Position numbers and translations under genes: made by a program. From an uncultured cyanobacterium (GTDB lineage Bacteria; Cyanobacteriota; Cyanobacteriia; Cyanobacteriales; CAWUOF01), in NCBI GenBank assembly GCA_963744145.1, contig CAVUSO010000001.1, positions 1,472,001-1,536,000 of the forward strand: a stretch of 64,000 bases of DNA. Reading direction: 5' to 3'. The notes beneath the pieces were generated by a model. That model was not told where the DNA came from, searched no databases, and saw nothing but the letters and a program-made list of their open reading frames with translations. Positions 26,243-56,675 of this stretch are shown piece after piece (position 1 is the stretch's first letter; every line of letters begins with the position of its first letter).

Positions 26243-27220
26243 ATGCAAAAAAGACCAGAAATTTTTGAGATCTACTGGAAATTTGCGGCCTGGCGGCAAG
26301 AAGTTTTTTTTAAGAAAATGAAAAATATGCCTCGTCCTTGGACAGAGGATAATATTATCAATACCTATAAATTTTGTAATGCTTATCGAGCCAGCGATCG
26401 CGTTTCCCAATATTTAATCAAACAGGTTATTTATCAAGGTAATTATAATGAAGAAGATATTATTTTTAGAATTTTGTTATTTAAAATATTTAACAAAATC
26501 GAGACTTGGCAATTATTAGAAAGTAAATTAGGTGATATTACTTTAGCTGAGTTTAATTTTGATACCTATTGTGATTTACTCCAAGCAGCACTAGATGCAA
26601 ATATGGTAATTTATACCAGTGCTTATACATCCTGCCCCACTAAATATTTTGGCTATGATAAAAAACATGAAAATCATCTCGCTTTAATTAGAAATATGGT
26701 GCAGGAACAACCAATTTTCAGCAAGATCATTACAGCTAAAAGTTTTAAAGAGGTTTACCAGACTTTGCTTAATTATCCATTAATTGGCAAATTTATGGCT
26801 TATCAACTAGCAACGGATATTAACTATAGTGAAGTGATCAATTTTGATGAAAATACATTTACGATCGCTGGTCCAGGTGCGGAACGTGGAATTAGTAAAT
26901 GTTTTAGTAATTTAGGAGGTAAAAATCATGCTGATGTGATCCAGTGGATGACGGAAAACCAACATGAGCAATTTCAAAGTCTCGGGATTAATTTTCAAAG
27001 TCTCTGGGGTCTTCCTCTCAAAGCGATCGATTGTCAAAATCTGTTTTGTGAGGTAGATAAATACTGTCGAGTAGCTTTTCCTGAACTGAAAAGTAATCGG
27101 ACCAAAATCAAAGCAAAATTTACTGCTAATCCGACACCAATTGACTATTTTTATCCTCCCAAATGGAAGATCAATGAAAAGGTTCAAGTAACTCTAGCGA
27201 CTAGATTACCTTCAGGATAA
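26243..27220 (+). CDS. aGPT-Pplase1-like (5-hmdU DNA kinase helical-domain family) HhH-fold DNA base-modification protein
   Basis: RQEVFFKK..PWTEDNIINTYKFCNAYRASDRVSQ, LFKIFNKIETW, HhH hairpin YPLIGKFMAYQLATD, GPGAERG, DCQNLFCEVDKY. Confidence 0.8.
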   Translation: MQKRPEIFEIYWKFAAWRQEVFFKKMKNMPRPWTEDNIINTYKFCNAYRASDRVSQYLIKQVIYQGNYNEEDIIFRILLFKIFNKIETWQLLESKLGDITLAEFNFDTYCDLLQAALDANMVIYTSAYTSCPTKYFGYDKKHENHLALIRNMVQEQPIFSKIITAKSFKEVYQTLLNYPLIGKFMAYQLATDINYSEVINFDENTFTIAGPGAERGISKCFSNLGGKNHADVIQWMTENQHEQFQSLGINFQSLWGLPLKAIDCQNLFCEVDKYCRVAFPELKSNRTKIKAKFTANPTPIDYFYPPKWKINEKVQVTLATRLPSG

Positions 27221-27462
27221 ATCCTGCTCAAAACTAACTAAAATCAGAGCAAGTAGGTAGGAAACCTACAGTTAACTGAACCCTATTGAATTATATATCG
27301 GTTAATCCTCATTAAGAAATAGCAGAAAATTTTTGCCAGTAACCCGATTTGTGGATGTGAGTTGGATGGTGAAAATAATTAACGAATAAACTTTAATAAA
27401 CCTTAACCTTTTCTCAAGCGAGAGCTGGTTAAAATATTGGTGTAGTATATAAATTTTTATCT

Positions 27463-30054
27463 ATGCCTCAGACTTTATATAAGAAAATATTATCATTACT
27501 CATATTAAGCACTCTGATTCCAGCTTCGACGATTGGAATGTATGGAATCTTTTCTTCAACTCAAGCAATATATGAAGTAAATATCAATCGGATTAAGAAG
27601 CAGAATAATGACAAAGTCAAAGATATTGAAGCATTTCTCAATAATACTGACCAAGATTTGCGTTTTTTAATGTCAACTCCTGCTTTGGAAGAATTAACTA
27701 GACTAGGTGTATATCAAGCACCTCAGTCACAGTCAAATAATTATCAAGATGTTCTCAGAAGAGCAAATCAGATTGCGAAAGGACTAATGCGCACGACTCC
27801 TGGTTACAAGACTATTCGCTATGTTGATGCTCATGGTCATGAAATGATGCGGGTTGAGCTAGTCGATCATAAATCTTTTGCGATCGCAGATGAAAACCTA
27901 AAAGATCAGAAAAACTCAATTTATTTTCAGGAAGCACGACAGCTAAAACCTGATCAAGTATATATTTCACCTGTGGTTTTTGAACCTAGTTCTGAAGAGA
28001 TTAAAACTCAGCCACCCGTTAAAGTCAACACCAGTGATAGCAATTCTATTCATCCTGTTCTCTACTATGAAATGGCATTTTTTAATCAATCAGGTGCTTT
28101 GACAGGTGCAGCGGTTATTACTTTAGATTTATCAGCGCTCAGAAATCTGCTAGAAAGTTCAAAAATAGACAAAAATTATACCTATTTGATTGATTCATCA
28201 GGTCGTTATCTATTTAATTCTCCTCGCCAGGCTCAAGGTAATATCAAACAAGTTTATCCAGAAAAAATAGTTAATGACATACTTTCAATGCCAGAAAGTG
28301 TAATTAAAGTCAATCAACAGGAAATTATTAGCTCCCAAAATATTGCGAGTAATACTAATCATAAATTAGTGATTTTCCAAGTATCTAGTACCGATATTGT
28401 GCTTGCTCCAATTAATTCTTTTATTTTAGTGGCAATAGCTGTAATTGTTGGTTCATTAGGAATAGTATTAATGGCTGGGATTCCCATATTAAGGAGAATT
28501 GCTAAGTACCAAAATCAGTTGTACGATCAAATTCAAAATGTAGCCGCGATCGCTACAAAAAAAGCGGAGGAATTAGCAGAAACTCTCAAAGTTAATTCTA
28601 CTCTAACTGAACACCTTCAATCCGCCAAAGAAGCTGCGGAAGTTGCCAATCAAGCTAAAAGTGAATTCTTAGCTAATATGAGTCATGAGTTACGCACTCC
28701 TCTCAACGGTATTCTCGGTTATGCCCAAATTCTCCAACGAGCAAAAGAACTAACTCCTAAACATCGCAAAGGGATTGATATTATTGAACAAGCAGGTTCT
28801 CATTTACTGACTTTAATTAACGATATTCTCGATTTGTCAAAAATTGAAGCCGGAAAAATGGAATTATTGCCAAGAGATTTTCACTTAGGTGCATTTTTAA
28901 GTGGGATTGCTGAACTTAATCGTGTTCGGGCTGAAAGTAAAGGAATTAACTTTTATTATCTGCCTGACCCAGAAATGCCCACTGGAGCAATAGCTGATGA
29001 AAAAAGGTTAAGGCAAGTTTTAATTAATTTAGTAGGAAATGCGGTAAAGTTTACCGATCGCGGTCATGTAACTCTAGAAACAAAAGTGCTAGAAAAACAA
29101 CCAAAAGAAGTGATGGTTCGGTTTACGATCACAGATACAGGAGTCGGGATGAAACCAGAACACATTGCTAATATTTTCCTTCCTTTTGAACAGGTGGGTT
29201 CAAATTCTAAACGAACAGAAGGAACAGGACTAGGTCTGACGATTTGTACAAAAATTGTGCAAATGATGGGTAGCAAAATTGAACTGACTAGCAATTATGG
29301 TCAAGGTAGTAAATTTTGGCTTGATCTCAAGTTAGGAATTTCGACGGAATGGATTAGTGCTGCTAGTTATAGTAACAAAGGTACTATTATTGGCTATAGT
29401 GGTGAACCAAAAAAATTATTAGTAGTCGATGATAAAGAAGTAAATCGAGAAGTTTTGGTAGAAGTATTAAGACCTTTAGGATTTGTAATAGAACAAGCAG
29501 AAAACGGTGCAGAAGCATTAGAAAAAACCCGCTCTTTTCAGCCAGATTTAATCATTACTGATATTGCTATGCCCGTGATGGATGGTTATGATTTTACCCG
29601 GGAAGTGCGGAGTTTATATTCAGAAAAAATTCCGATCATTGCTTGTTCGGCTAGTGTTTCCTCTAGTGACAAAGATTTAGCGATCGCTGCTGGATGTAAT
29701 GATTTTATTCCCAAACCAGTGGAAATGGAAATTTTATTCCTAATCTTAGAAAAATATTTGCAAATCCAATGGAATTATGATGTCAATCATTCGACTTCGA
29801 GTAGGACCCAGGAGCAGTCAACCAAGGTGCCAGTTCAAGAGATGGTTTTTCCAACTTCAGCAGAGCTCAATAAGTTATATGAAGCGAGCCGGATTGGTGA
29901 TATTGATATGATCAAAAGTGAAGCTGAAAGATTATCACAAAGTAACCCACAATATCAGCCTTTTACTGATCGAATTATTGAACTTGCTGACCAATTTGAT
30001 GATGTTGGGATTATTCAAATGATTAAGTCGATTATAAATTCAGAAATAACGTAG
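27463..30054 (+). CDS. hybrid sensor histidine kinase/response regulator with Cache-like periplasmic domain
   Basis: Two TM helices, [30 protein letters not shown]-terminal REC domain. Confidence 0.93.
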   Translation: MPQTLYKKILSLLILSTLIPASTIGMYGIFSSTQAIYEVNINRIKKQNNDKVKDIEAFLNNTDQDLRFLMSTPALEELTRLGVYQAPQSQSNNYQDVLRRANQIAKGLMRTTPGYKTIRYVDAHGHEMMRVELVDHKSFAIADENLKDQKNSIYFQEARQLKPDQVYISPVVFEPSSEEIKTQPPVKVNTSDSNSIHPVLYYEMAFFNQSGALTGAAVITLDLSALRNLLESSKIDKNYTYLIDSSGRYLFNSPRQAQGNIKQVYPEKIVNDILSMPESVIKVNQQEIISSQNIASNTNHKLVIFQVSSTDIVLAPINSFILVAIAVIVGSLGIVLMAGIPILRRIAKYQNQLYDQIQNVAAIATKKAEELAETLKVNSTLTEHLQSAKEAAEVANQAKSEFLANMSHELRTPLNGILGYAQILQRAKELTPKHRKGIDIIEQAGSHLLTLINDILDLSKIEAGKMELLPRDFHLGAFLSGIAELNRVRAESKGINFYYLPDPEMPTGAIADEKRLRQVLINLVGNAVKFTDRGHVTLETKVLEKQPKEVMVRFTITDTGVGMKPEHIANIFLPFEQVGSNSKRTEGTGLGLTICTKIVQMMGSKIELTSNYGQGSKFWLDLKLGISTEWISAASYSNKGTIIGYSGEPKKLLVVDDKEVNREVLVEVLRPLGFVIEQAENGAEALEKTRSFQPDLIITDIAMPVMDGYDFTREVRSLYSEKIPIIACSASVSSSDKDLAIAAGCNDFIPKPVEMEILFLILEKYLQIQWNYDVNHSTSSRTQEQSTKVPVQEMVFPTSAELNKLYEASRIGDIDMIKSEAERLSQSNPQYQPFTDRIIELADQFDDVGIIQMIKSIINSEIT

Positions 30055-30078
30055 GGGCGTATTGCAATACGCCCCTAC
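30051..30078. repeat. REP-like perfect palindrome overlapping the kinase stop codon
   Basis: GTAGGGGCGTATTGCAATACGCCCCTAC; related to the core at ~54087-54111. Confidence 0.7.
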
Positions 30079-30094
30079 ATCATCAACCGATCGA

Positions 30095-30157
30095 CCCAAA
30101 TGGAAGATCAATAAAAAAGTTCAGGAAACTTTAAACGCAATACTGTCATCTGTATAA
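30095..30157 (+). pseudogene. diverged copy of the last 20 codons of the aGPT-Pplase1-like gene
   Basis: PKWKINKKVQETLNAILSSV* versus PKWKINEKVQVTLATRLPSG* (27158-27220); same length. Confidence 0.75.
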
Positions 30158-30497
30158 ATACTTATAATTAATAAAATTATCGATGACTATATAAGTATTT
30201 GTTTATACAAAATATTACTTAAGTAATGTACTGTTTTTACCAAACTAAGATCGTTTGGATAGTTCCTAAAATTCCTTTTGAAACAAAGATATAAAAGCTA
30301 GTATGTTAGACAAATTTAAACTAATCTTAACTATTTAATGGTACTATTTTAGTTAGAATATTAATATTGATTAAAATCGCAAAATTCTAATATTAGTACA
30401 AGTGATTTATCAATTTTTTTTCTAAATAAAACCTTCTTTGTAGAGATGTTTCGATGTAACCTCTATTACATGGTGTTAAAATACCTAAAAAAACTTT

Positions 30498-33041
30498 ATG
30501 TTAAAAAATTTTCATAACAAATTGCTATTATTGTTAGTATTAAGCACTATTATTCCTGCCGCTACAGTTGGAATATATGGGATTATTTCTTCAACCCAAT
30601 CAATATATGAGCTAAATATAAATCGAATTAAAAAACAGAACGATAATAAAATCAAGGATATTGAAGCAGTTCTATTAAATACCGAACAAGATATACATTT
30701 TGTCATCGCGACTCCAGCATTTAGTGATGATCTAACTCAATTAAATACATATCAAGCACTTCAACTACAGACAGATATTTATAAAACTTTTACAGCCAGA
30801 GCAAATAAGCTTGTTAAAGGATTAATGGTAACAACTGAGGCTTATAAAAGCATTAGTTATATTGATACAAATGGTCAAGAAATGCTCTGCGTTGAACGCA
30901 TCAATGAAAGCCCTGAACCCCTACCAGATAACCAGCTTAAAAATTGGAAAAATTCAGCTTATTTCCAAGAAGCTCTGAAGCTGAAACCTAACGAATTATA
31001 TATATCACCGATTATATTGGAAACAAGTAAAACAGGTCAGAAAATTTCTATTAACCCTATAATTTACTATGCAATAGCAGCTTTTAATAGTTCCGGTGTG
31101 CTGAAGGGAATTACTGTTATTACTTTGCAAATATCATCTTTTGAAAAGTTTTTAGAGACAGCCAACCTAGAACAAAATAGTATTTATTTACTTGATTCAT
31201 TAGGCCATTACCTCCTAAACTCTCCTAGCAAAACTCAAGGTGAAATTAAGCAGGTTTATTCAGAAAATATAGTTAATCAAATTCTTAATAATGATGAAAA
31301 TATAATTTTTTCTGGTGAAAAAGAAATAATTAGTTCTAAAAAGATTGTGGTTAATAATAATCCGGTATTCATAATTTTACAATCATTTTCGACCAAGGAT
31401 GTGGTTACTGCTGTGAGTTGGTTTACGTTTGTAGCAGTTGCGGTAATTTGTGGTTCTTTAGGAATAGTTTTAATCATTGGAATTCCCACCTTGGTGAGAA
31501 TTGCACGTAACCAAGATAATTTATATGATCAAATAAAAGCTTCAGCTGCGATCGCGACAGCTAAAGCGGAAGAATTAGCAGAAACCTTAAAAATTAACTC
31601 GGCACTATCAGATAGCTTGAAACTAGCCAAAGAAGCAGCAGAAGTTGCGAACCAAGCTAAAAGTGACTTTCTGGCTAATATGAGCCATGAATTACGCACT
31701 CCTCTGAATGGGATACTTGGTTATACCCAAATCCTCCAAAGAGCTAAAGATTTGGCTCCACAATACCGTAAAGGTATAGATGTTATTGAAAAAGCAGGTA
31801 CTCATTTACTAACTTTAATTAATGATATTCTTGATCTTTCTAAAATAGAAGCTGGCAAAATGGAATTTTTTCCCAAAAATTTCCATCTCGGTTCTTTTTT
31901 GAGTGGGATAGTCGAAATTAATCGTGTAAATGCAGAAAACAAAGGAATCAAATTCTATTACCTTCCTGACCCAGAAATGCCTAGGGGAGTCTACACCGAT
32001 GAAAAAAGATTAAGACAAATATTAATGAATCTAGTAGGAAATGCCGTAAAATTTACAGAGCGCGGTAGTGTAACCTTAGAAACACAAGTATTACAAAAAC
32101 ATGATGATAATGTCACAATTCGCTTTAGTGTTAGTGATACGGGAATTGGGATGACACCAGAACAAGTAGCCAAAATTTTTCTACCCTTTGAACAAGCTGG
32201 GTCAGTATCTAAGCGACATGAAGGTACAGGATTGGGGTTAGCAATTTCTACAAAAATTGTACAGATGATGGGTAGTAAAATAGAACTAACTAGCACATTA
32301 AATCAAGGTAGTAAATTTTGGATTGATCTCAAATTAATAATTTCTCAAGATTGGATTAGCACTGCTAGTCACAGCAGCAAAGGTAAAATTGCGGGTTATG
32401 TTGGTGAACAGAAAAAAATCTTAGTAGTAGATGATAAAGAAGTAAATAGGGAAGTTTTAGTAGAGGTATTAAGACCATTAGGATTTATGATAGAAGAAGC
32501 AGAAAACGGTGCAGAAGCATTAGAAAAAACCTTTTCTTTTCGACCAGACTTAATTATTACGGATATTGTTATGCCCGTAATGAATGGTTATGATTTCACC
32601 CGTGAAGTTCGTCAGAAATATTTGCAAACAATACCGATTATTGCTTGTTCTGCTAGTGTTTCAGCTACTGATCGAGATTTAGCGATCGCATCCGGTTGTA
32701 ATGATTTTATTGCTAAACCTGTCGAGATGGAAACTTTATTTACAATGTTACAACAATATTTGAAATTAAAATGGATTTATGAACAGCAGAAAGGGTTAAC
32801 ATTAATAGATACTGAGGAAGAGAAAGAAATGGTTTTTCCTCAAGTAGAAGAAGTAATTAAGTTATATGAAGCTGCTCGAATTGGAGATGTTGATACGATT
32901 AAAAGTGAAGCTGAAAGATTAGCACAAAGTAAACCGCAATATCAGCTTTTTGCGGCTCAAATTATTGAGCTTGCTGACCAATTTGATGATATTGGTATTA
33001 TGCGAATGATGCAGTCTATTTTAAATTCACCAACCAAGTAA
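30498..33041 (+). CDS. hybrid sensor histidine kinase/response regulator (tandem paralog of 27463..30054)
   Basis: Same architecture, alignable over the full length. Confidence 0.93.
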
Positions 33042-33044
33042 TAC

Positions 33045-33178
33045 CAATTTAATGTGAATTTGCATAGAGCTAGATCCCCCTAAATCCCCCTTAAAAAGGG
33101 GGACTTTAAATTCATGCTCCCCCTTTTTAAGGGGGCTGGGGGGATCAATTCTATGCACCCTCATCAAAAATTGGTATA
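33045..33178. repeat. dispersed palindromic repeat (inverted homolog of 12975-13147)
   Basis: GATCCCCCTAAATCCCCCTTAAAAAGGGGGACTTTAAATTCATGCTCC...GGGGGATC. Confidence 0.7.
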
Positions 33179-33248
33179 AGCAGTTGAGTAAAATCTCTAA
33201 AAAGCTACTTTTTGGTGAGCTGATTTGTAAGCATTATACATTTTTCGG

Positions 33249-33983
33249 TCATTCTGTTTTTAACCATTCTTGGTGAATTCTATTTGCTTCATTTGCAGAT
33301 AAGCTACCAGCTAATTTACCATTTTGCCAGAGCATACAATCATAGTCAAGCGATCGCCATCCAATCGTCATTCGGACTAACCCATCTGTCTGATCAGAGA
33401 TAAAGCTGTCAGCACCATGTTCACATTCAATATTATCAAATACCAATAAATCACCAGCTTCAGCGGATACTACTTCACTAGAACCATCTGAATAGAAAAG
33501 TCTTGTACCACCACTAGAGGTATGATTAACCAGAGTCAGGACTGCAACATATTTAGGTCTAATTGCATCAATGATATTTAAGGAATTATCTTCATTCACT
33601 TGAAAAGCTTGGAATTCACCATCAAAATGTTTACTCACAGGACTATTTGCTTGATGATAGAGCTGGATATTGAACAAGAGTCTAGTGGTGAGATCCGGAA
33701 TGTTCAAATAGGTTAAAATTTGATAGTTTAGATTAGCTATTTCCGGGGAACATTCAGCGATCAATTCGGTTCTAATTGCAGGTAAATCACCAGGGTGAGA
33801 TGCACTCCAAACATTAAAAGCGTAAGAATTACGTCCAGGTTTCTCATCGGAAAAATATGCAGAATGTTCGCGGAGATGATCTTCATTATAAAATCTATCA
33901 ATGATTTTATAAGTCCCGTTAATATAAGCTTCTAAGGACTGATTGCTGAGAAAATTTTTATAGAGAATATAGCGTAATGTCAT
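33249..33983 (-). CDS. 2OG-Fe(II) dioxygenase superfamily protein
   Basis: HxD in SKHFDGE, GGTRLF, GDLLVFDN, distal His in CEHG, Arg in VRMTIGWR; ATGA overlap with the kinase. Confidence 0.78.
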   Translation of the reverse strand: MTLRYILYKNFLSNQSLEAYINGTYKIIDRFYNEDHLREHSAYFSDEKPGRNSYAFNVWSASHPGDLPAIRTELIAECSPEIANLNYQILTYLNIPDLTTRLLFNIQLYHQANSPVSKHFDGEFQAFQVNEDNSLNIIDAIRPKYVAVLTLVNHTSSGGTRLFYSDGSSEVVSAEAGDLLVFDNIECEHGADSFISDQTDGLVRMTIGWRSLDYDCMLWQNGKLAGSLSANEANRIHQEWLKTE

Positions 33984-34546
33984 AGATTCACTCCCACAAA
34001 TTTGAGAATATATTCAGGGGTACACTCGGCATTTTTTATTAAAAATATTTGGGTATATTGCTCAAACCATGCTTTCATTTTTGCTTGCATCTCTAAACAT
34101 TGTTCAAGCGTTTCATATCTACCACTTTGATGATAGCGTCGGCGATATTCAGATTCCTCCAGTTCGATAAAAAAGTTAAATATTTTAAAATCGTGTTGTT
34201 TGATTAGGTATTCTTCCCATTCTATTATAGCAGAGATGAGATGGGGAAAGGAATGCTCAGAGTAGTAGTTAGCGTAAAAAGCTGATAACATTAAACAGGT
34301 ATCAGATACGGCTAATTGGTATTTACTGGAAATTAAAGCTGTGATATAATGGCTTTGGTTTCCTAATACTGCTAACTGACCCAGCGGTGAGATCGGGATT
34401 TTTCTGATTGCCCAATCTTTAATAAATTCAGTAATCAGATGGGAATTAATCCCAGCTCGAGCAGTAGAAGCATAAATATCTGCTGCTAGGGTAGATTTAC
34501 CAACCCCTGGAGTACCAATCAAATTGATAATTTTAATGACTGTCAT
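33980..34546 (-). CDS. P-loop nucleotide kinase (NadR/AAA_28-like)
   Basis: Walker A IINLIGTPGVGKST, TEFIKDW, VSD, GRYET lid motif. Confidence 0.75.
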   Translation of the reverse strand: MTVIKIINLIGTPGVGKSTLAADIYASTARAGINSHLITEFIKDWAIRKIPISPLGQLAVLGNQSHYITALISSKYQLAVSDTCLMLSAFYANYYSEHSFPHLISAIIEWEEYLIKQHDFKIFNFFIELEESEYRRRYHQSGRYETLEQCLEMQAKMKAWFEQYTQIFLIKNAECTPEYILKFVGVNL

Positions 34547-34617
34547 TCCGAAAATAAGTTTTTGGTGGTAATTATATTATATTCTAAGTAAGTACAGGAG
34601 AAATCAGGGAGTAGTAA

Positions 34618-36528: not shown

Positions 36529-37398
36529 ATGGTTCAACAACTCCAACCAGAAATTATTTACCCGGAAAGCGACGGTCAACCAATGGCTGATAACACCGAA
36601 CAATTTAACTGGATTGTGATTATTAAAGAGAATTTAGAACGATTATTTGCTGGAATAGTTAATGTATTTATCGCGGGGAATCTGCTCTGGTATCCAGTCC
36701 AGGGAAGTTTACAGTCAATGGCACCCGATGTGATGGTCATCTTTGGTAGACCAAAAGGTAAAAGGGGTTCTTATCAACAATGGCTCGAAGCAAATATTCA
36801 CCCTCAAGTCGTCTTTGAAATTTTGTCTCCCAGCAATAAAGCTGCCGAAATGTCGAATAAATTCCTATTGTATCAACAATATGGGGTGGAAGAATATTAT
36901 ATTTATGATCCCCAACGAGTAGAATTGAGTGGCTTTTTACGTCGAGGAGAAATCTTAGAAGCGATCGACCAGATCCAAGGATGGGTTAGTCCCCGATTAG
37001 GAATCAGATTTGAACTCAAACCAGACACTTTGGAGATTTATCGTCCCGATGGAGAGAAGTTTCTTACCTCGATCGAACTCGATCAACTCACTCAGCAAGA
37101 ACGTCAACGTGCTGAACAAGAACATCAACGTGCTGAACAAGAACATCAACGTGCTGAGGTCGCTATGACCCAGCTTGAGCAAGAACGTCTTCGTGCTGAA
37201 CAAGAACGTCTTCGTGCTGAACAAGAACGTCTTCGTGCTGAACAAGAACATCAACGTGCTGAACAAGAACGTCTTCGTGCTGAACAAGAACATCAACGTG
37301 CTGAGGTCACTATGACCCAGCTTGAGCAAGAAAGACAGAATTATCAAGTTTTGCTGGCACTATTGCAAGCAAAGGGGATTGATTTAGAACAATTATAG
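36529..37398 (+). CDS. Uma2-family PD-(D/E)xK putative endonuclease, copy 1
   Basis: YPESDGQPMADN, APDV, FEILSPSN, GVEEYYIYDP; EQERxRA heptad tail. Confidence 0.92.
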   Translation: MVQQLQPEIIYPESDGQPMADNTEQFNWIVIIKENLERLFAGIVNVFIAGNLLWYPVQGSLQSMAPDVMVIFGRPKGKRGSYQQWLEANIHPQVVFEILSPSNKAAEMSNKFLLYQQYGVEEYYIYDPQRVELSGFLRRGEILEAIDQIQGWVSPRLGIRFELKPDTLEIYRPDGEKFLTSIELDQLTQQERQRAEQEHQRAEQEHQRAEVAMTQLEQERLRAEQERLRAEQERLRAEQEHQRAEQERLRAEQEHQRAEVTMTQLEQERQNYQVLLALLQAKGIDLEQL

Positions 37399-39860: not shown

Positions 39861-39862
39861 CA

Positions 39863-43043: not shown

Positions 43044-44342
43044 GGGATAAATTATTTGTGGATAGCATTAGTCAAGCATCAAATTATATTTTAATCGCGA
43101 TCGTCACGCGCTCCAAGTCTTTTGAGAGTAGCTATAGTTGCCTCATTTAATCCTGTAACTCCAGTAATATTCATCCCATTGTATGGTTTTTTTGCAATCA
43201 GCTCTCTGATCAATTTACCTGTCTGGACATCCCACAATTTAATCGTCTCATCTTGACTACCATTAGCCAAAATTTTCCCATCAGGATGGAAAGAAACTGA
43301 CCGTACTTCACCCTCATGTTTCAAAGTATGAAGCAGTTCATTTGTCTTCGGTTGTGTTAAAGTTTGGTCAGATTGAATTAATGTAATATCCCACAGCTTG
43401 ACTGTTTGATCTTCACTAGCACTAGCAACAGTATGACCATCAGGACTATAGGCAATTTTCCAGATAGGAGCTTGATGGTTTTGGGATGGATCGGATGCAG
43501 ATAAAGTCTTTAGGCAATTACCTGTATTAATATCCCATAGCTTCAAAGTCTTATCATCACTAGCACTGACTAAGAGATTATCACTAATCGGACTAAACGC
43601 AACAAAACGCACATAATGTTGATGTCCTACCAAAATTTTGGTACATTCGCCTGTAGCGACATCCCATAATCTGATTGTCCTGTCATCACTGCTAGTAGCA
43701 AGCATTTTACCATCTCGGCTGAAAACTGCTGACCTGACTGCCTGTGTATGCCCTGTTAAAGTTTTTGCACATTTCCAATCACTAACATTCCATAACTTTA
43801 CCGTCGTATCTCCACTAGCACTAGCCAGAAATTGACCATCAGGACTAAACCTCACTGACCATACCCAACCTTGATGTTCCTCCAAAGGCTTGCTTAGTTT
43901 TCTATCAGTTTTAGCATTCCAGAGACTAATAATGTTATCACCACCCCCACAAGCAAGAATTTGACCATCAGGGCTGAACGCTAGAGACCATGCCCAATTT
44001 GTATGCACCTTTTCTGTTTCACTTTCTGTAGGTGGATCAGTAGTCAAATTCCATAATCTGATAATTTGGTCATCACTACCACTAGCGAGGGTATTACCAT
44101 CAGGACTAAATGCAACTGCACAGATCCCATAGGTTAGTCCCTGTAAAACTTTCAGGGGTGTACCATCCTTAAAATCCCACAATCTGATTGTTTGATCATT
44201 ACTACCACTTACAAGAATATTAGTATTTGGATCGGGAGTGAAAGCTAATGTATTAACGCGAGTCTTATGACCTTGCAAAGTTTTCAAAGCTTGACCCGTT
44301 TGTACATCCCATACCCTCAAATTTTTATCATCACTGCTACTA

Positions 44343-45922: not shown

Positions 45923-48732
45923 TAGCAATAGTTTTCCCATCAGCACTAAAAGCTACCGAGAAAACTGGATCTGAATGTCCCGATAAACTCCGTAAGCATT
46001 TCCCTGTATCGACATCCCACAGTTTCACCATTTTATCATTACTACCACTCGCAAGTATTTTACCATCTGGACTGAATGCAACTGACCTTACTTGTTCGGT
46101 ATGTCCATCGATAGTTTTGAGACATTTTTCAGTCTCAACATCCCATAACTTCACCAATTTGTCTTCGCTACCAGTCGACCAAACGTTTACCATCTGGATG
46201 GAAGACAACAGACCGTACTGCTTTACCAGGTTCATCAGTTACCTTCAAAGTCTTTAAGCATTCACCTGTATTGACTGACCATAACATTACATTTTGGTCT
46301 GCACTTCCACTCGCTAAAATTTCACTGTCAGCACTGAAAACCACTGATCTGACTTGGTTAGTATGTCCTGACAAAGTTTTATGACTTTCAAATAAATTAC
46401 TATTAGATGACTTTCTATATAAACGCACCTTTAGGTCAGTACAAGCACTAGCTAAAAATTCACCATTAGGACTAAAAGCAACAGACCAGACCCACTGAGG
46501 ATGTTTAATCACCTGAATTTCTTTACCATCAGGCATTTCCCATAAACGGAGTTCATGCTTAGAATCACCTGTCGCGAAAATTTTTCCATCGGAGCTAAAA
46601 GCAACTGATAATATATTGCCAATAGTTTCAGCAAAAACCGAATTTTGAAAATCAGCGTTAGCAAAATTTACATCATATAGTTTAGCATTCCTTAGATCGG
46701 CTTGCCAAACAGGCAAATTAGAGAAATCATATCCGTTTAAATCAGACTTTAAATAGCCAAGCAAGTTAAGGATGTTTCCTGCTGCATATCCCTTTGCTCC
46801 TGGTAATTTTCGGAGATTTGATAGAATCTGCTTTAGCTGATTTTCCACATTTATTTCTTCAGTAAGTTTACTTACTGGGTCTAGTATGAGACGTATTTGA
46901 AAATCTCTCACATAATCTTTTGCTTGAGCTTTAATCAAAGCATGAGTCTTAAAAATTTTAATCTTATCAGTTTTAATTTCTTCACATATTATCTCAACTA
47001 ATTGCTTGGTCATATACTCCATAATTACAGGCTGTAATGAAAAACGAGTTCCAGCCTTCTCAAGTGGTAAGCGTCGTTCTAGCGATTCGATCGTGTCCGG
47101 TATTTCTTGTTGATTTTTAGAGAAGAGTGTATCTGTCTTTAATTCAGAGAGTAAACAATACTCACGATTAATTGCTAACCAGTACATAATCTCTTTTTCT
47201 GACTCATTCAAACGTTCTTCAAAATACCACTTTAACAAATCTTCAATACTGCGAATAGTTCTATTATGTTGTTGTAAAAAAGCCCTAATATTACCATTAT
47301 AAATGGCTTTAATATGTTTGGCGACAAGTTCTAATGCTAATGGATTGCCATCATAATCTGTAATGATTTGGTTCCAGTCATTCTCTGAGCCGTCAAAGCT
47401 TCCTATAGCGGTAAAAATTTTTTGTCCGTCTAACAACTTCAGTCCTGACAATGGTAGTACACGAACTGATCCTGTTGGGCTTTCCAGCACTTCAATATCT
47501 TGAGGTTTTTCACGACTTGTTAATAATAAACAACTTTTATGAGATTCTTTCCCTACTCGCTCCAGCAACTGACCATACCCTTCATATCCACTTCGGTATT
47601 GCCCAGATATTTCACCACCTTGTAAAATTGATTCTGCATTATCTAATATCACTAGACAGCGACGCGATCTTAAAGAGTCAAGCAAGAGTGATATTTGTTG
47701 CTCTGGCTTGTTTGGTAAATCAATTTTCTTGTTATCAGAAAGAAATTGGATCAGGTCTCTCAAAATTTCTTCTAACCGTGGAGCATTTAATAGCGATCGC
47801 CATATTAAATATTGAAAGTTGTCTTTAATATGTTTGGCTAATTTCAGGGAGAGATCCGTTTTACCTATCCCACCCAAGACTAGATTTGTTTTACCTATCC
47901 CACGCATCCCTATAATCGCCACCAGTTTGCATTTATCTTTAATAATCCATTGTTCTAAATCCTCTAGTTCTTTAGTGCGTCCATAGAAAACGGGTACATC
48001 AGGCGCATCGTCCAAGTTTTGATGGCATATATTGTTCTCGTTTTTTACTCCATAAATTAATTTAATAGCCACAATCTAACCAAATTACTTGTTGTTTAAC
48101 TTCACTTTCTAGTAAGATATCTTGCAGCCATGATAAAGAAACACCATATACTTCTTTTCTAGGACAAGCCTCGCTAGTAGCTAAAAATCCTTCTTTTAAT
48201 CCTCGTGGTTCTCGCAAACCGTGTCCAGCAAAAAATAGCAGGGCTGTATCAGGGCAATTTTTTTCTCCGATCGCGAACAGTTTGATGATTGCTTCTTTTA
48301 GCTCTGGTGCTGTAACATTTCCTTTGGGATCGATTTTGAATGTTCCGTCCGGGATAGTAGGAATCTGATGGACTACTGAAAAGTGGCCATAATTTTTTAG
48401 TAGATCAGCGATCGCTTCTGCATCAGATGCTGGTTTGTCTAAATTGTTTAGGAAAGGATATCGATTGATGCCCACGACCAGTGCTTGACGGTTCATCTTA
48501 CTTGCCTCAACACGCTTATGACCTAGTATGATAGCACTTATGAGATATTTTAACCATATTTGCCAATACAAGTTAACACAGGACGCTAGTATAGAACAGC
48601 AAGGAAAACAAGAAACAGAATTGCTAATGTCCAAATTTTCTCAGGAGTAGCGATCGCGACTCTATAAATAAACCAAGTGCTAAATTATGATAAAATATTA
48701 CTATACGTGCAGTTAATGCCACTCACAAGACT

Positions 48733-49767
48733 ATGCCCGCATTCTATTTTAGCCAAATCGATACAGAAGCAGAAGCCTATCTTTTAGGTCGTATTGCTAG
48801 CGATACCAGCGTCATTACCAAAGACTCGCTCATCATCCAATTTCACCCAAATGAAAAAGAGCTGATCGAAAAAATCAGCTACAAGCTAAAAATTACCTTA
48901 AGTCCCAGAGCGTTAACAATTACTTCTCCAGAAATATTACAAAATATCTGCAAAATTCTCGATATAGAACCCGAAACCAAATCTACAGATGTTAACTTTC
49001 CTTCCTTAGATTTAGAGGAATTAACATGGGCATTTATTAGAGGTTATTTTGATGGTAATGGTGAAATATCTAGGGTTGATAATAATCGCTCACCTCACTG
49101 TAAAATAGTCACAAATTCAATCAAAATAATAGCTGGAATTAGAGATTTCTGTAAGATTAAATCTAGGGAAACTAATGAAGGATTAGTATGGGATGATAAT
49201 AATGCCCTCGATTTCTTAGGAAAACTCTACGAAAATGCCAAAATTTACTTTCCTAGAAATCGCGAGTTATATTTAGATTGGGCTTCTTGGGTTCCTGCTC
49301 TTTCCGGATCTAACAATTATGGTAGACTCAAAAGTTTCCGATGGACAAAAAGTCACCCAAAAGCGTTCCCCCCTTTCAAACAAAGAGTTTCAGACTCTGG
49401 TTTTGATTTAACGTTAATTGATATTGTCGAACAAATTGGTAATGTGCAAGTTTACGATACTGGGATCAAAGTTCAACCGGAATATGGATGGTATTTCATT
49501 ATTGCTCCCCGTAGTTCCCTATTCAAAAAAGGATATATCCCAGCAATTACTACTGGAATTATCGATCGCACTTATGTCGGTTCTATCAAAGTACCCTTAA
49601 TAAAATTTGACCAGAATGCTCCTGATTTAGAATTGCCCTATCGTGCTATGCAAATCATTCCTACACCCATAGTTCATGTTGATCTTGTAGAAGTTGATGA
49701 TTTGGAAGAAACTAACAGAGGAACTGGTGGTTTGGGTTCGAGTGGTGATGCAATTTATCCCAAATGA
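48733..49767 (+). CDS. LAGLIDADG-like domain fused to a trimeric-type dUTPase
   Basis: AYLLGRIASD and AFIRGYFDGNG helices; dUTPase motifs I SGFDL, II PRSS, III GIIDRTYVG, IV AMQII, V RGTGGLGSSG. Confidence 0.85.
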   Translation: MPAFYFSQIDTEAEAYLLGRIASDTSVITKDSLIIQFHPNEKELIEKISYKLKITLSPRALTITSPEILQNICKILDIEPETKSTDVNFPSLDLEELTWAFIRGYFDGNGEISRVDNNRSPHCKIVTNSIKIIAGIRDFCKIKSRETNEGLVWDDNNALDFLGKLYENAKIYFPRNRELYLDWASWVPALSGSNNYGRLKSFRWTKSHPKAFPPFKQRVSDSGFDLTLIDIVEQIGNVQVYDTGIKVQPEYGWYFIIAPRSSLFKKGYIPAITTGIIDRTYVGSIKVPLIKFDQNAPDLELPYRAMQIIPTPIVHVDLVEVDDLEETNRGTGGLGSSGDAIYPK

Positions 49768-50863: not shown

Positions 50864-51607
50864 ATGGTCCAACAACTCCAACCAGAAATTATTTACCCAG
50901 AGAGCGACGGTCAACCGATGGCTGATAATACTGAACAATTTAACTGGATTGTGATTATTAAGGAGAATTTAGAAAGATTATTTGCTGGGATAGCTAATGT
51001 ATTTATCGCGGGTAATCTGCTCTGGTATCCAGTTCAGGGAAGTTCACAATCAGCAGCGCCCGATGTGATGGTCATCTTTGGGAGACCAAAAGGTAAACGG
51101 GGTTCCTATCAACAATGGCTCGAAGAAAATATTCACCCTCAAGTAGTATTTGAAATTTTGTCTCCTAGCAATAACGCTACCGAAATGTTGAATAAATTCC
51201 TATTCTATCAACAATATGGGGTGGAAGAATATTACATTTATTATCCCCAACGAGTGGAATTGAGTGGCTTTTTGCGTCGAGGAGAAATCTTAGAAGCGAT
51301 CGACCAGATCCAAGGATGGGTTAGTCCCAGATTAGGAATCAGATTTGAACTCAAACCAGACACTTTGGAGATTTATCGTCCCGATGGAGAGAAGTTTCTC
51401 ACCTCGATCGAACTCGATCAACTCACTCAACAAGAGCGTCAACGTGCCCAACAAGAACATCAACGTGCTGAACAAGAACATCAACGTGCCCAACAAGCTA
51501 TAACCCAGCTTGAGCAAGCTATGACCCAGCTTGAGCAAGAAAGACAGAATTATCAAGCTTTACTAGCACTATTGCAAGCCAAGGGGATTGATTTAGAACA
51601 ATTATAG
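50864..51607 (+). CDS. Uma2-family putative endonuclease, copy 3
   Basis: Near-identical to the other copies; YDP changed to YYP. Confidence 0.92.
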   Translation: MVQQLQPEIIYPESDGQPMADNTEQFNWIVIIKENLERLFAGIANVFIAGNLLWYPVQGSSQSAAPDVMVIFGRPKGKRGSYQQWLEENIHPQVVFEILSPSNNATEMLNKFLFYQQYGVEEYYIYYPQRVELSGFLRRGEILEAIDQIQGWVSPRLGIRFELKPDTLEIYRPDGEKFLTSIELDQLTQQERQRAQQEHQRAEQEHQRAQQAITQLEQAMTQLEQERQNYQALLALLQAKGIDLEQL

Positions 51608-51758
51608 CAACTTATCATGACGTTTGAGCATTAATTTTCAGTCAGTATTTCCCCGTAATTGCGATCGCCGGTCAAATTGTGTTTGAGCCAGTCAAGAATT
51701 GATAGAATAGGGATAGTTAATCATCAACTTAGCCCCCCAATAGAGCAGGAGTAGTAGC

Positions 51759-52460
51759 ATGGTCCAACAACTCCAACCAGAAATTATCTATCCTGAGAGC
51801 GACGGTCAACCGATGGCTGATAACACCGAACAATTTAACTGGATTGTGATTATTAAAGAGAATTTAGAAAGATTATTTGCTGGGATAGCTAATGTATTTA
51901 TCGCGGGTAATCTGCTCTGGTATCCAGTTCAGGGAAGTTCACAATCAGCAGCGCCCGATGTGATGGTCATCTTTGGGAGACCAAAAGGTAAACGAGGTTC
52001 CTATCAACAATGGCTCGAAGAAAATATTCACCCTCAAGTAGTATTTGAAATTTTGTCTCCTAGCAATAACGCTACCGAAATGTTGAATAAATTCCTATTC
52101 TATCAACAATATGGGGTAGAAGAATATTACATTTATGATCCCCAACGAGTGGAATTGAGTGGCTTTTTGCGTCGAGGAGAAATCTTAGAAGCGATCGATC
52201 AGATCCAAGGATGGGTTAGTCCCAGATTAGGAATCAGATTTGAACTCACACCAGACACTTTGGAGATTTATCGTCCCGATGGAGAGAAATTTCTTACCTC
52301 GATCGAACTAGATCAACTCACTCAACAAGAACGTCAACGTGCTGAACAAGCTATAACCCAGCTTGAGCAAGCTATGACCCAGCTTGAGCAAGAAAGACAG
52401 AATTATCAAGCTTTACTAGCACTATTGCAAGCAAAAGGTATTGATTTAGAGCAATTATAG
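51759..52460 (+). CDS. Uma2-family putative endonuclease, copy 4
   Basis: Tandem copy. Confidence 0.92.
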   Translation: MVQQLQPEIIYPESDGQPMADNTEQFNWIVIIKENLERLFAGIANVFIAGNLLWYPVQGSSQSAAPDVMVIFGRPKGKRGSYQQWLEENIHPQVVFEILSPSNNATEMLNKFLFYQQYGVEEYYIYDPQRVELSGFLRRGEILEAIDQIQGWVSPRLGIRFELTPDTLEIYRPDGEKFLTSIELDQLTQQERQRAEQAITQLEQAMTQLEQERQNYQALLALLQAKGIDLEQL

Positions 52461-52611
52461 CAACTTGTCATGGCGTTTGAGCATTAATTTTCAGTCAGTA
52501 TTTCCCCGTAATTGCGATCGCGGGTCAAATTGTGTTTGAGCCAGTCAAGAATTGATAGAATAGGGATAGTTAATCATCAACTTAGCCCCCCAACAGCTTA
52601 GGAGTAGTAGC

Positions 52612-53334
52612 ATGGTTCAACAACTCCAACCAGAAATTATCTATCCTGAGAGCGACGGTCAACCGATGGCTGATAACACTGAACAATTTAACTGGATTGT
52701 AATTATTAAAGAGAATTTAGAAAGATTATTTGCTGGGATAGTTAATGTATTTATCGCGGGTAATCTGCTCTGGTATCCAGTTCAGGGAAGTTTACAATCA
52801 GCAGCGCCCGATGTGATGGTCATCTTTGGGAGACCAAAAGGTAAACGGGGTTCTTATCAACAATGGCTCGAAGCAAATATTTACCCTCAAGTCGTCTTTG
52901 AAATTTTGTCTCCCAGCAATAACGCTACCGAAATGTTGAATAAATTCCTATTCTATCAACAATATGGGGTGGAAGAATATTACATTTATGATCCCCAACG
53001 AGTCGAATTGAGTGGCTTTTTGCGTCGAGGAGAAATCTTAGAAGCGATCGATCAGATCCAAGGATGGGTTAGTCCCAGATTAGGAATCAGATTTGAACTC
53101 AAACCAGACACTTTGGAGATTTATCGTCCCGATGGAGAGAAGTTTCTTACCTCGATCGAACTAGATCAACTCACTCAACAAGAGCGTCAACGTGCTGAAC
53201 AAGAACGTCAACGTGCTGAACAAGCTATAACCCAGCTTGAGCAAGCTATGACCCAGCTTGAGCAAGAAAGACAGAATTATCAAGCTTTACTAGCACTATT
53301 GCAAGCAAAGGGTATTGATTTAGAGCAATTATAG
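52612..53334 (+). CDS. Uma2-family putative endonuclease, copy 5
   Basis: Tandem copy. Confidence 0.92.
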   Translation: MVQQLQPEIIYPESDGQPMADNTEQFNWIVIIKENLERLFAGIVNVFIAGNLLWYPVQGSLQSAAPDVMVIFGRPKGKRGSYQQWLEANIYPQVVFEILSPSNNATEMLNKFLFYQQYGVEEYYIYDPQRVELSGFLRRGEILEAIDQIQGWVSPRLGIRFELKPDTLEIYRPDGEKFLTSIELDQLTQQERQRAEQERQRAEQAITQLEQAMTQLEQERQNYQALLALLQAKGIDLEQL

Positions 53335-54172: not shown

Positions 54173-54820
54173 CTATCTTAACAGATGCGATCGCACCCAT
54201 TCTCTCCAAGCTCTAATTATAGTAGTATCGTCTTCAATTTCGATCAATTGCAAAAACTGATTAATAATCGCGATCGAGACGATAGGAAAATTATAACTAT
54301 ATTCAGAGCTGATATATTCCCCATTTTGAAGTTGATAAAATTCAACCATCTCTCCTCGACAACGCCAAATTTCTGGAATTCCGAGCTGTGTGTAAATTGC
54401 CAATCTGCTACTTGATAAACTGGTAATATCAACTTCAATTACTAAATCGGGTGGAGGATCAGTAGATAGATCAATTCTGCGACCCTGAATCCGGTCAACA
54501 TTTTTTATATAATAGCAGGAATCAGGTTCAGATCCCCGTTGCAAATCTTCCCGATTCAAAGTTACTGAAGCAAATCCTTTTACTCGTAAATTCAGCTCCT
54601 CGGTTAAAGTATTTACCATTCTTTCTAAGAGTTGCTTGTAAGTTTCATGACGATCTGATGGCATTGTTATTTCTAGTGATCCCTGAACATAAGCAAGACG
54701 TAAAGCGCGATGATCTCCCAATTCTACTAACAGCGTTTTGTAAGTTTGCCAGCTAATATTTTGTAAAATAATCCTCTGGGTAGGTGACTGAGGTAAATTT
54801 TCTAGGGCAGTAATTATCAT
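54173..54820 (-). CDS. Uma2-family putative endonuclease (different subfamily)
   Basis: ISWQTY, EPDSCYY, PPDLVIEVDITS, LGIPEIW. Confidence 0.9.
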   Translation of the reverse strand: MIITALENLPQSPTQRIILQNISWQTYKTLLVELGDHRALRLAYVQGSLEITMPSDRHETYKQLLERMVNTLTEELNLRVKGFASVTLNREDLQRGSEPDSCYYIKNVDRIQGRRIDLSTDPPPDLVIEVDITSLSSSRLAIYTQLGIPEIWRCRGEMVEFYQLQNGEYISSEYSYNFPIVSIAIINQFLQLIEIEDDTTIIRAWREWVRSHLLR

Positions 54821-54823
54821 AAC

Positions 54824-55912: not shown

Positions 55913-56036
55913 TAGACCTCTTGCAAAAGTCCTTATTGATCTATTTATTGACAGGCAAGATGCCTGTCCCACCAGAAAAAATCCCTTTTGTGGGACAGGC
56001 ATCTTGCCTGTCCTATTTATTTTTGCAAGAGGTCTA
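55913..56036. mobile_element. MITE directly after the dcd stop codon
   Basis: Perfect 16-bp TIRs TAGACCTCTTGCAAAA / TTTTGCAAGAGGTCTA; internal GACAGGCAAGATGCCTGTC palindromes. Confidence 0.8.
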
Positions 56037-56675
56037 TTAAACTTTGGGTAGCACCACTTTTTCCGGTTGATCTTGATATTTACCTGATCTTTGTGCGTAG
56101 GTAGTCTGACAAGAATCTCCTTCCAAAAAAAGTAATTGACAAACACCTTCATTAGCATATATACGTGCATCAGCAGGAGAAGAATTAGAAAATTCTAAAG
56201 TTAAATGTCCTCTCCATCCTGCTTCACCGGGAGTGACATTAGCAATAATCCCACATCGAGCTAGGGTACTTTTTCCCATACAAATCACTGTAATATTTCC
56301 CGGTATTTCTAATCGCTCTAAAGCTACTCCTAACCCGTAGGATCTTCCTGGTAAAATAAAAAACTCTCCATCGCGATCGCGGTGTAGTGCTGTGACTTCT
56401 AAATTATCAGGATTAAACCGTTTGGGATTAACAATCGTCCCCGGTACATGACGAAAAATCCGAAACTCTTGGGGCGATAATCTGATATCATAACCATAAC
56501 TGGAACATCCATAGGATAACACCGATATAGTTTGATCCTCAAATTGCATACTTCGCACCAATTTAGGCTCATAAGGCTCAATCATACCTTGAGCGGCCAT
56601 TTGGGCGATCCAAATATCATTTTTAATCATCATCAATCCTCTAGTGACATAAAAACCGGGTGAGTTAAAAAACAC
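56037..56675 (-). CDS. dcd: dCTP deaminase (true start probably at MMIKND)
   Basis: SYGCSSYGYDIRL, GKSTLARCG, TPGEAGWRGHLTLE, YANEG, KYQDQ. Confidence 0.95.
   Translation of the reverse strand: MFFNSPGFYVTRGLMMIKNDIWIAQMAAQGMIEPYEPKLVRSMQFEDQTISVLSYGCSSYGYDIRLSPQEFRIFRHVPGTIVNPKRFNPDNLEVTALHRDRDGEFFILPGRSYGLGVALERLEIPGNITVICMGKSTLARCGIIANVTPGEAGWRGHLTLEFSNSSPADARIYANEGVCQLLFLEGDSCQTTYAQRSGKYQDQPEKVVLPKV

Follow-up and report, generated by a model that had tools for sequence, protein, structure and literature searches.

A 64,000-nucleotide stretch of chromosome from an uncultured cyanobacterium (assembly GCA_963744145.1, contig CAVUSO010000001.1, positions 1,472,001 to 1,536,000; hereafter the window) encodes TS-B, a protein with a thymidylate synthase (TS) fold joined to a helical, Nmad1-like C-terminal domain. 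TS-B is the only TS-family protein recovered from this genome, in which no thymidylate kinase (Tmk) was found, and it is accompanied by genes for pyrimidine nucleotide supply and by modules of the kind met in phages and defence systems. The region is read here, with a confidence somewhat above even, as the cell's own thymidylate-supply locus, rebuilt from mobile parts of phage and defence type. According to this reading, TS-B would be a working TS, and the dTMP kinase step would be carried out by a small P-loop protein (P-loop188), by the C-terminal domain of TS-B, or by both.

In the proposed pathway, the dCTP deaminase Dcd would convert dCTP to dUTP, the dUTPase would convert dUTP to dUMP, and the N-terminal domain of TS-B would convert dUMP to dTMP. 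The phosphorylation of dTMP to dTDP would then be the task of the adjacent phage-type P-loop188 and/or of the invariant Nmad1-like domain of TS-B. The other members of the set, namely a pair of proteins of the aGPT-Pplase1 and DUF1643 families, the putative 2-oxoglutarate (2OG)-Fe(II) oxygenase OG244 and the HAD-like protein HAD324, would be modules of the same mobile toolkit. They may form a side branch in which an oxidised pyrimidine is produced or eliminated, which would fit the joint presence of a phosphatase, an oxygenase and a kinase, or they may represent residual defence.

TS-B in genomes without a thymidylate kinase match

The genome that carries the window (labelled G000, other sampled genomes being labelled G and extracted loci or contigs L, each with its number) comprises 7.70 Mb, with a main contig of 7.63 Mb, and is 96.3% complete. 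Profile searches of this genome returned TS-B as the sole match to PF00303, and found no ThyX, no Tmk (PF02223) and no DHFR_1; tblastn of two cyanobacterial Tmk proteins against it gave a best E-value of 0.14. The Tmk search was successful in 13 of 14 control genomes. An earlier note on this DNA, made from the sequence alone, had placed the TS homologue in a DNA-modification pathway. It is not an extra enzyme but the only TS-family gene, in a genome where neither ThyX nor Tmk was found.

The same searches were applied to a sample of 121 genomes of the order, G000 included. PF00303 was matched in 46 of them and ThyX in 72, both being present in two (G090 and G096) and neither in five, three of which are less than 90% complete; TS-family genes and ThyX are thus complementary in 116 of the 121. 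Tmk was matched in 116 genomes as well; of the other five, four are TS-B carriers (G000, G002, G025 and G090) and one is G081, which is 77% complete. Two of the 116 Tmk matches are weak (G009 and G018), and that of G018 lies inside the second adenylate kinase gene. This last genome (94% complete, 180 contigs) shows no TS-family, ThyX or real Tmk match, for which an assembly gap or another arrangement is possible. Five GTDB families are represented among the TS-B carriers of the sample, and in two of them (f19 and f38) Tmk is kept by other members.

A pattern-based scan of 185,579 species genomes located 16 TS-B loci, every one cyanobacterial; distant TS-Nmad1-like fusions, such as one in a Ktedonobacterales record, fall outside the Tmk counts given here. 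Ten of the 12 further TS-B genomes have no Tmk match, and the two that have one carry only remnants of TS-B, a frameshifted fragment (L028) and a 244-residue C-terminal remnant (L027). Taken together, Tmk is unmatched in 14 of the 15 genomes with a full-length TS-B, the exception being G119. The middle and C-terminal region of TS-B was found in none of 400 other genomes sampled across the phylum. In addition, Tmk is encoded at most 1.6 kb from ThyX or from TS-A, a second TS-family protein, in 7 of the 121 genomes, and was therefore part of the ancestral locus that now holds TS-B. TS-A has about 500 residues, matches PF00303 only at profile positions ~90-228 and ends in a PterinBD-DUF4346 domain (examples are L005:11940-13466 in G002 and L006:10838-12331 in G025); most Cyanobacteriales without ThyX seem to use it as their housekeeping TS.

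A reciprocal decay is observed within the 15 TS-B proteins. The TS catalytic motifs are intact in only three (G000, G002 and G119), and there is no other TS in G000 and G119. In the remaining 12, the RSxD motif is without its Arg and the SRR motif without its second Arg, the Cys being kept in only three. Of these 12, 11 have ThyX or TS-A adjoining, the twelfth being located on a contig of 2.8 kb. These data suggest that ThyX or TS-A makes the TS domain of TS-B redundant, and they speak for dTMP as the compound that TS-B forms. The situation in G119, in which TS-B is the sole TS alongside an intact Tmk and a DHFR (E 5.8e-45), argues in the same way, and points to dTMP instead of the 5-hydroxymethyl-dUMP (5hm-dUMP) that had been proposed in the earlier note. 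An in-frame TGA initially suspected in the Tmk gene of G119 proved to be the natural end of the gene, and this genome was counted as Tmk-positive. The decay also suggests that the function which is always retained, and which tracks the loss of Tmk, resides in the Nmad1-like half of TS-B.

The N-terminal domain of TS-B matches PF00303 with 86.5 bits (cut-off 24.3), and residues 3-361 match the phage TS family phrog_5131 (E 4.8e-76). All eight NCBIfam TS models score it under their cut-offs, the best being TIGR03283 with 95.4 bits against 174.55. Among solved structures, MilA, a CMP hydroxymethylase, comes first (E 2.6e-26), and classical TS follows at E 6.4e-16. At the position that sets base specificity, TS-B has Asn, which aligns with the Asn of TS and with the Asp of MilA, and for this reason the base of its substrate should be uracil. 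The SRR, PCN, RSND and HLY motifs are all intact in the protein of the window, which keeps the catalytic Cys and the phosphate-binding Arg residues. Synthase and hydroxymethylase are not separable for TS-B by sequence, and dTMP is the product that we infer. The TS domain also contains an in-frame tandem repeat (four units of 24 bp) that none of the four other aligned TS-B proteins has.

The C-terminal half of TS-B, of about 335 residues, has no direct Pfam match at E≤10. A model built from 16 sequences is all-helical (pLDDT 83.5), and its residues 274-385 resemble a TPR-type repeat. Residues ~391-595 superimpose on chain 5myd_A with a Z score of 7.7 and a root-mean-square deviation of 4.1, aligning 150 residues to a chain of 160, followed by 5mil_B (Z 6.3) and 1ogk_B (Z 4.8). 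Dimeric dUTPases are the only matches found that span the entire domain, with Z values in the range usual for helical proteins, and a Foldseek search of the PDB with the model gave no match at E≤0.001. The nearest clusters in the ESM Atlas carry DUF1599 (PF07659)/Nmad1 (scores 0.92, 0.91 and 0.89). A profile search with this region collected 737 relatives at E≤0.001, and 58 of 150 listed relatives were scanned with Pfam: 31 have a TS domain in front, three show a sub-threshold DUF1599 match at the corresponding region (E 2.5e-4 to 6.2e-4), and others carry HMUDK_hel (two), MazG_C, radical-SAM or protein kinase domains. In the protein P0168, HMUDK_hel is fused to an Nmad1-like domain. A pattern-limited scan of viral contigs with the C-terminal alignment yielded no relatives. 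The fusion of a TS-fold enzyme to Nmad1/DUF1599 described in the earlier note is hence confirmed for the TS part by PF00303, and supported for the Nmad1 part indirectly, by the Atlas clusters and the profile relatives, as Pfam gives no direct match.

About 80 positions of this half are invariant over the 16 sequences, being rich in Lys and Arg and including an acidic cluster. On the basis of the model and of its conservation, the C-terminal domain may tentatively be proposed as a new kind of thymidylate kinase or dTMP pyrophosphokinase, a possibility that we consider doubtful but worth stating, in which TS-B would be a bifunctional synthase/kinase that displaced Tmk in a group of filamentous cyanobacteria. 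If this were true, it would provide a function, the activation of (modified) dNMPs, for the widespread phage domain DUF1599/Nmad1.

Several other candidates for the role of Tmk were rejected. The second adenylate kinase encoded beside CobO occurs in 120 of the 121 genomes regardless of Tmk, and the MazG_C 'predicted nucleotide kinase' occurs in one of 19 genomes tested (G090) and not in G000. The Laspinema group has an HD-domain gene upstream of TS-B, but this gene is of general occurrence, and G000 has three copies of it. A genome scan with phrog_2107 was unspecific, with matches in 19 of 19 genomes and 14 of 14 controls; the near-full-length ones (324-331 residues) have HxGH and P-loop motifs that make them look like NadR. 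For G000, the presence or absence of DHFR does not help to tell a synthase from a hydroxymethylase, DHFR_1 being absent from most TS-A genomes as well. A literature search, with most subscription journals outside its coverage, returned nothing on Tmk-less cyanobacteria, on DUF4346 or PF18723, or on what DUF1599 does.

Nucleotide genes and phage-type modules of the locus

The order conserved across TS-B loci is TS-B, ThyX or TS-A, dUTPase, dCMP deaminase and CobO, and CobO, which anchors the locus on its right-hand side, is encoded beside dUTPase, dcd or dCMP deaminase genes in 13 of the 16. In G119, the genes for DUF1643, HMUDK_hel and TS-B are contiguous, and are followed by those for dUTPase, dCMP deaminase and CobO. 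G002 presents an HMUDK_hel::DUF1643 fusion, a second HMUDK_hel gene, a P-loop188 homologue, TS-A, TS-B, a desaturase, an intein-bearing dcd and CobO, and shares with the window the adjacency of dcd and CobO. In relatives, TS-B, dUTPase or dcd, and CobO are held together in only a few kb. The layout of the window, with ~20 kb between TS-B and dcd, therefore looks as if gene insertions had spread such a compact locus apart, and the left flank of that locus is now located at 6.72 Mb in G000. The pathway had been described as dispersed; its genes are functionally linked, and their dispersal here looks like insertion into a compact locus. Moreover, most of the pairings recur in other genomes and on metagenome contigs, which does not correspond to a chance neighbourhood.

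Dcd, named in the earlier note, scores above the cut-off of its NCBIfam model. The dUTPase of the window is the only PF00692 match in G000. As had been noticed from the sequence, it is a fusion, and residues 5-181 of its N-terminal part match phrog_4645 'endonuclease' (E 2.8e-14), with a weak match to LAGLIDADG_3. This endonuclease-like part (~200 residues, 48733-49380) precedes the dUTPase domain and is not inside it, and is hence unlike an intein. Inteins do occur in nucleotide genes of relatives, both in ThyX, together with an HNH domain (L007:10552-12432, in G090), and in dcd (L005:16879-17937, in G002), and many ThyX matches of the 121-genome sample are split like the intein-bearing ThyX.

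The genes for P-loop188 and OG244 overlap by four bases (ATGA), and the pairing of a P-loop kinase with a 2OG-Fe(II) dioxygenase predicted in the earlier note is borne out by this overlap, by the AAA_28 match of the former and by the fold and motif of the latter. The PHROG families matched by P-loop188, phrog_2107 (E 8.5e-11) and phrog_761 (E 3.7e-4), bear the name 'thymidylate kinase'; the protein gave no PF02223 match at E≤0.01, and a PDB sequence search gave only hits at E≥0.32. A homologue 68% identical adjoins TS-A and TS-B in G002. As judged from its distribution, this protein can explain the phosphorylation of dTMP in G000 and G002, and not in the other twelve Tmk-less genomes.

OG244 has no Pfam match. 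Its AlphaFold model (pLDDT 94.1) is a double-stranded beta-helix, and the PDB matches examined with Foldseek are all 2OG-Fe(II) oxygenases, either prolyl hydroxylases or AlkB-like (best E 6.7e-8). Residues H119, D121, H189 and R204, which make up the HxD...H motif and the 2OG-binding Arg, are invariant in 39 homologues. Eleven metagenome loci with an OG244 homologue were inspected. In five of them, the gene directly follows a P-loop188 homologue, and these loci continue with a divergent Tmk-like gene and then a dUTPase. In four others, it directly follows a homologue of HAD324 (32-33% identity), with a TS-like gene nearby in three of the four and a dUTPase gene in both of the two scanned for it; the remaining two contigs are too short to judge the neighbours. 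Because its homologues directly precede those of OG244 in these loci, HAD324, although encoded 21 kb away, appears to belong to the same functional circle. HAD324, described earlier as a HAD phosphatase, has a weak HAD match (E 0.007), its strong match being to the PADLOC candidate PDC-S34 (E 2.7e-63). On contig L049 (2158-5128), two DUF7487 proteins are encoded upstream of a P-loop/oxygenase/Tmk-like/dUTPase operon, one of them with a weak Mom-family match (E 8.7e-4).

The HMUDK_hel gene is the sole copy in G000, and its identification as aGPT-Pplase1-like holds, given its match to PF18723 and the phage homologues annotated 'aGPT-Pplase clade 1'. Homologues at up to 32% identity were found in 485 phage records, some of which bear that name, and others are carried by 22 plasmids. 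DUF1643, which is possibly uracil-DNA glycosylase (UDG)-like to judge from a figure legend, is encoded adjacent to or near HMUDK_hel in G119, G090, G058 and G097, in addition to the fusion in G002. Both members of the pair are 50-55% identical to their counterparts in other modules. Elsewhere, HMUDK_hel forms modules with MazG::MazG_C, and three of the four cyanobacterial loci inspected also have DUF1643 in the vicinity. Regulators of HTH and ImmA/IrrE type, and at times a TS or dCTP-deaminase gene, accompany these modules in other cyanobacteria and on plasmids. A sequence search of the PDB found nothing for DUF1643 or HMUDK_hel at E≤1, and a search of the ESM Atlas with DUF1643, its own family skipped, gave no usable match.

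Known systems and rival explanations

The resemblance to phage and defence genes that had been pointed out is real, as the PHROG matches indicate, and the closest tested relative of the toolkit appears to be E. coli DS-4, in a comparison made by listed domains and one motif. DS-4 is listed as defensive, and consists of a TS, an 'adenylate kinase', an HMUDK_hel protein, a TIR protein and Nmad2 (DefensePredictor, Science 2026, PMC13092281); its supplement row gives a -log of the efficiency of plating (EOP) of 0.93 for Lambda, with smaller plaques (PMC13092281). As listed, DS-4 shares with the window a TS-fold protein with a 'DIPCNN' motif, a small P-loop kinase and a stand-alone HMUDK_hel (PF18723). 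DS-4 carries its Nmad-type domain as a separate Nmad2 protein, whereas the window has it in an Nmad1-like form, as a part of the TS fusion. The 32 open reading frames (ORFs) of the window scanned with Pfam, which span 23.7-60.1 kb, include no TIR and no Nmad2. Conversely, DUF1643, the 2OG oxygenase and HAD are found in the window and not among the listed products of DS-4. DS-4 is accessory in a host with ordinary thyA and tmk, while the TS of the window is the sole one and Tmk is missing.

With the phage hypermodification clusters of M6, ViI, PhiW-14 and SP10, as far as these are described in the sources, the window has in common a clade-1 aGPT-Pplase, a TS-fold enzyme and nucleotide kinases. 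Those clusters carry in addition a P-loop 5-hydroxymethyldeoxyuridine (5-hmdU) DNA kinase (PF18748) and an amino-acid:DNA transferase, or clade-2 aGPT-Pplase (PF18724), and in the reported M6 reconstitution these two were sufficient, reactions without the clade-1 aGPT-Pplase gp55 still giving product (PMC8989533). Neither family was matched in G000, in searches whose sensitivity is unproven, PF18748 having matched none of 14 control genomes and PF18724 having been equally silent in the controls. The claim that the window holds the known core of thymidine hypermodification is therefore not supported for its two defining enzymes. The scanned ORFs also include no PLP-dependent, radical-SAM or other tailoring enzyme, unlike the phage clusters, and the HMUDK_hel of the window is at most 32% identical to its phage homologues and set in a chromosomal housekeeping locus. 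The mobile HMUDK_hel, MazG::MazG_C and DUF1643 modules share with the window the HMUDK_hel and DUF1643 pair, a TS gene and a putative domain of NTP-pyrophosphatase type; in the window, a TS-Nmad1-like fusion and a separate P-loop kinase take the place of MazG::MazG_C, and there is no HTH/ImmA-IrrE regulator. The DefensePredictor text and its Fig. 6F legend name predicted 'aGPT-Pplase/MazG/MazG-C/UDG' systems, which are probably these modules. Finally, TS-B shares with the classical cycle of ThyA, Tmk and DHFR the TS fold, the catalytic Cys, the Arg residues, the Asn for uracil and supply by dcd and dUTPase, and differs from ThyA in falling below every NCBIfam TS cut-off, in its ~335 extra residues and in a genome without a PF02223 or DHFR_1 match.

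Three other explanations have to be weighed. It is distinctly unlikely, in our judgement, that the locus modifies the cell's own DNA. TS-B would then make 5hm-dUMP, P-loop188 would phosphorylate it, and 5hmdU would replace some or all of the thymidine, with aGPT-Pplase1, DUF1643 and the oxygenase elaborating or policing it, and Tmk and ThyX lost as dTTP was no longer the main product. Hydroxymethylase chemistry needs no DHFR, and the missing Tmk, ThyX and DHFR_1 of G000 would fit this explanation, as would the hydroxymethylase as nearest solved structure. So would aGPT-Pplase1, which is otherwise typical of phages with hypermodified thymine, the fusion in P0168, and the conserved operons of oxygenase, kinase or HAD, and dUTPase, which suggest that an unusual pyrimidine nucleotide is made. 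The TS domain, however, is degenerate in most carriers, nearly all with ThyX or TS-A adjacent, and these are Tmk-less all the same, so that the loss of Tmk does not depend on a hydroxymethylase. The reciprocal loss of the TS domain and of ThyX or TS-A argues for the same product, and G119 pairs TS-B as sole TS with Tmk and DHFR. PF18748 and PF18724 not being found in G000 also speaks against such a modification, as does the dispensability of gp55 in the reconstituted M6 reaction. Slightly less improbable, and still unlikely, is an anti-phage defence island, in which a DS-4-like set of TS, kinase, aGPT-Pplase1 and DUF1643 would alter or deplete pyrimidine nucleotides on infection, while dTTP would be made by unrecognised genes elsewhere. 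The listing of DS-4 as defensive with its effect on Lambda is consistent with this idea, and so are the HMUDK_hel, MazG::MazG_C and DUF1643 modules with HTH/ImmA-IrrE regulators, the PADLOC candidate matched by HAD324, and the restriction-modification pair, the caspase/NB-ARC/WD40 gene and the Uma2 genes of the surroundings. Uma2 genes are nevertheless common in cyanobacteria, the core genes were matched by no PADLOC model, and the scanned ORFs contain no HTH/ImmA-IrrE regulator, TIR or Nmad2. It also argues against defence that TS-B is the sole TS-family gene of a genome in which no Tmk was found, and that it sits inside a conserved housekeeping nucleotide locus in 15 genomes.

An artefact, with Tmk and ThyX missing through assembly gaps or search misses and the genes being unrelated neighbours, seems very improbable. 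G000 does fall short of full completeness, and completeness figures are lacking for 10 of the Tmk-less genomes, several of which are metagenome bins. Yet the G000 chromosome is a single contig, the Tmk search performed well in controls and in the sample, and the gene pairings recur on unrelated contigs. Furthermore, the absence of Tmk recurs in 14 genomes, cultured isolates included, and reverses exactly where TS-B is broken.

The reading as a thymidylate-supply locus also has to face several adverse observations. The TS domain is nearer to MilA than to classical TS and escapes the NCBIfam models. P-loop188 has no PF02223 match and is present in only two of the 121 genomes (G000 and G002), which speaks against it as the cause of the loss of Tmk in the other 12. 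Regarding the C-terminal domain, it contains no P-loop, its only fold resemblance, with modest scores, is to hydrolases (the dimeric dUTPases), and we know of no enzyme of this fold that acts as a kinase. TS-B and Tmk coexist in G119, and the carriers are related cyanobacteria, so that the 14 cases are not independent events. The missing DHFR_1 of G000 can be added to this list, with little weight either way because most TS-A genomes also have none. Lastly, this reading leaves the aGPT-Pplase1/DUF1643 pair, OG244 and HAD324 without a role, all of which a modification at the level of DNA would use.

Surrounding genes and implications

All genes named in the earlier note were found in place by the ORF check and by the Pfam and NCBIfam scans, and they are collected in the table together with their neighbours. 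The genes for TS-B, P-loop188 and HMUDK_hel lie inside 10.2 kb (26243-36405), with the two histidine kinase genes in between. G119 and G002 lack such a kinase pair at the matching place, and in both of them HMUDK_hel adjoins TS-B or is encoded not far from it. A different type of histidine kinase is encoded on either side of TS-B in G025 and in its vicinity in G002, which may be a coincidence. The G+C content is 0.31-0.38 across 26-38 kb and 0.40-0.43 in the flanks. The interval between TS-B and dcd is filled by the Uma2 genes, the restriction-modification pair and the caspase/NB-ARC/WD40 gene. The first Uma2 gene contains ten units of a 21-bp repeat (37096-37304) that encode a coiled segment of QERLRAEQE type, and the stretch from 43091 to 48634, with its caspase, NB-ARC and WD40 parts, looks like a single STAND-type gene split by the DDE_3 transposase. 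The statement that no phage structural, integrase or polymerase gene is visible has to be corrected in so far as this transposase is a visible mobile-element gene.

Table. Features of the window, with positions counted from its first nucleotide.
Feature	Position	Strand	Evidence
DUF1643 protein, 172 aa	25636-26154	+	PF07799 E 6e-46; phrog_3230 E 3.4e-50
Clade-1 aGPT-Pplase (HMUDK_hel) protein, 325 aa	26243-27220	+	PF18723 E 9.1e-106, profile positions 2-280 of 281
Tandem pair of paralogous hybrid histidine kinases, 863 and 847 aa	27463-33041	+	Cache, HisKA, HATPase_c and Response_reg domains
OG244, 2OG-Fe(II) oxygenase-fold protein, 244 aa	33249-33983	-	AlphaFold and Foldseek PDB; no Pfam match
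P-loop188, candidate dNMP/thymidylate kinase, 188 aa	33980-34546	-	AAA_28 E 1.5e-7; phrog_2107 E 8.5e-11
TS-B, TS fold, helical linker and Nmad1-like C-terminal domain, 595 aa	34618-36405	+	PF00303 E 2.2e-24, residues 11-259
In-frame 24-bp x 4 tandem repeat within the TS domain of TS-B	34937-35033	+	Repeat units of 8 aa, FDSAQxxG
Six Uma2-family genes	36529-37398, 39075-39860, 50864-53334, 54173-54820		
Type II restriction endonuclease and adjoining, weakly matching N6 DNA methyltransferase	40176-42268		NF052465 E 1.1e-106 (endonuclease)
Further WD40 repeats	43091-44320		
DDE_3 transposase	44587-45681		Pfam
NB-ARC and WD40 gene	46168-48072		
Caspase-like gene	48062-48634		
dUTPase fused to N-terminal endonuclease-like domain, 344 aa	48733-49767	+	PF00692 E 9.8e-16, residues 216-338
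HAD324, HAD-like protein, 324 aa	54824-55798	-	HAD E 0.007; PADLOC PDC-S34 E 2.7e-63
dcd, dCTP deaminase	56037-56675	-	TIGR02274 118.4 bits, cut-off 92.8
CobO, corrinoid adenosyltransferase	56708-57235	-	PF02572

To our knowledge, thymidylate kinase is regarded as a universal and essential enzyme. Free-living cyanobacteria in which no Tmk is matched, and which share the same fusion protein at the thymidylate locus, point to an unrecognised route to dTDP and dTTP, and the fused enzyme TS-B may hold a new way to carry out this essential step of DNA-precursor synthesis. The association also gives a directly testable function to Nmad1/DUF1599, a common phage domain to which no role has been assigned. 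If the self-DNA modification described above were true instead, this would be a cellular organism with phage-style modified thymidine. In the reading preferred here, a nucleotide toolkit of phage and defence type would have turned into core metabolism, which calls for caution in inferring 'defence' for such gene sets from nothing but their context.

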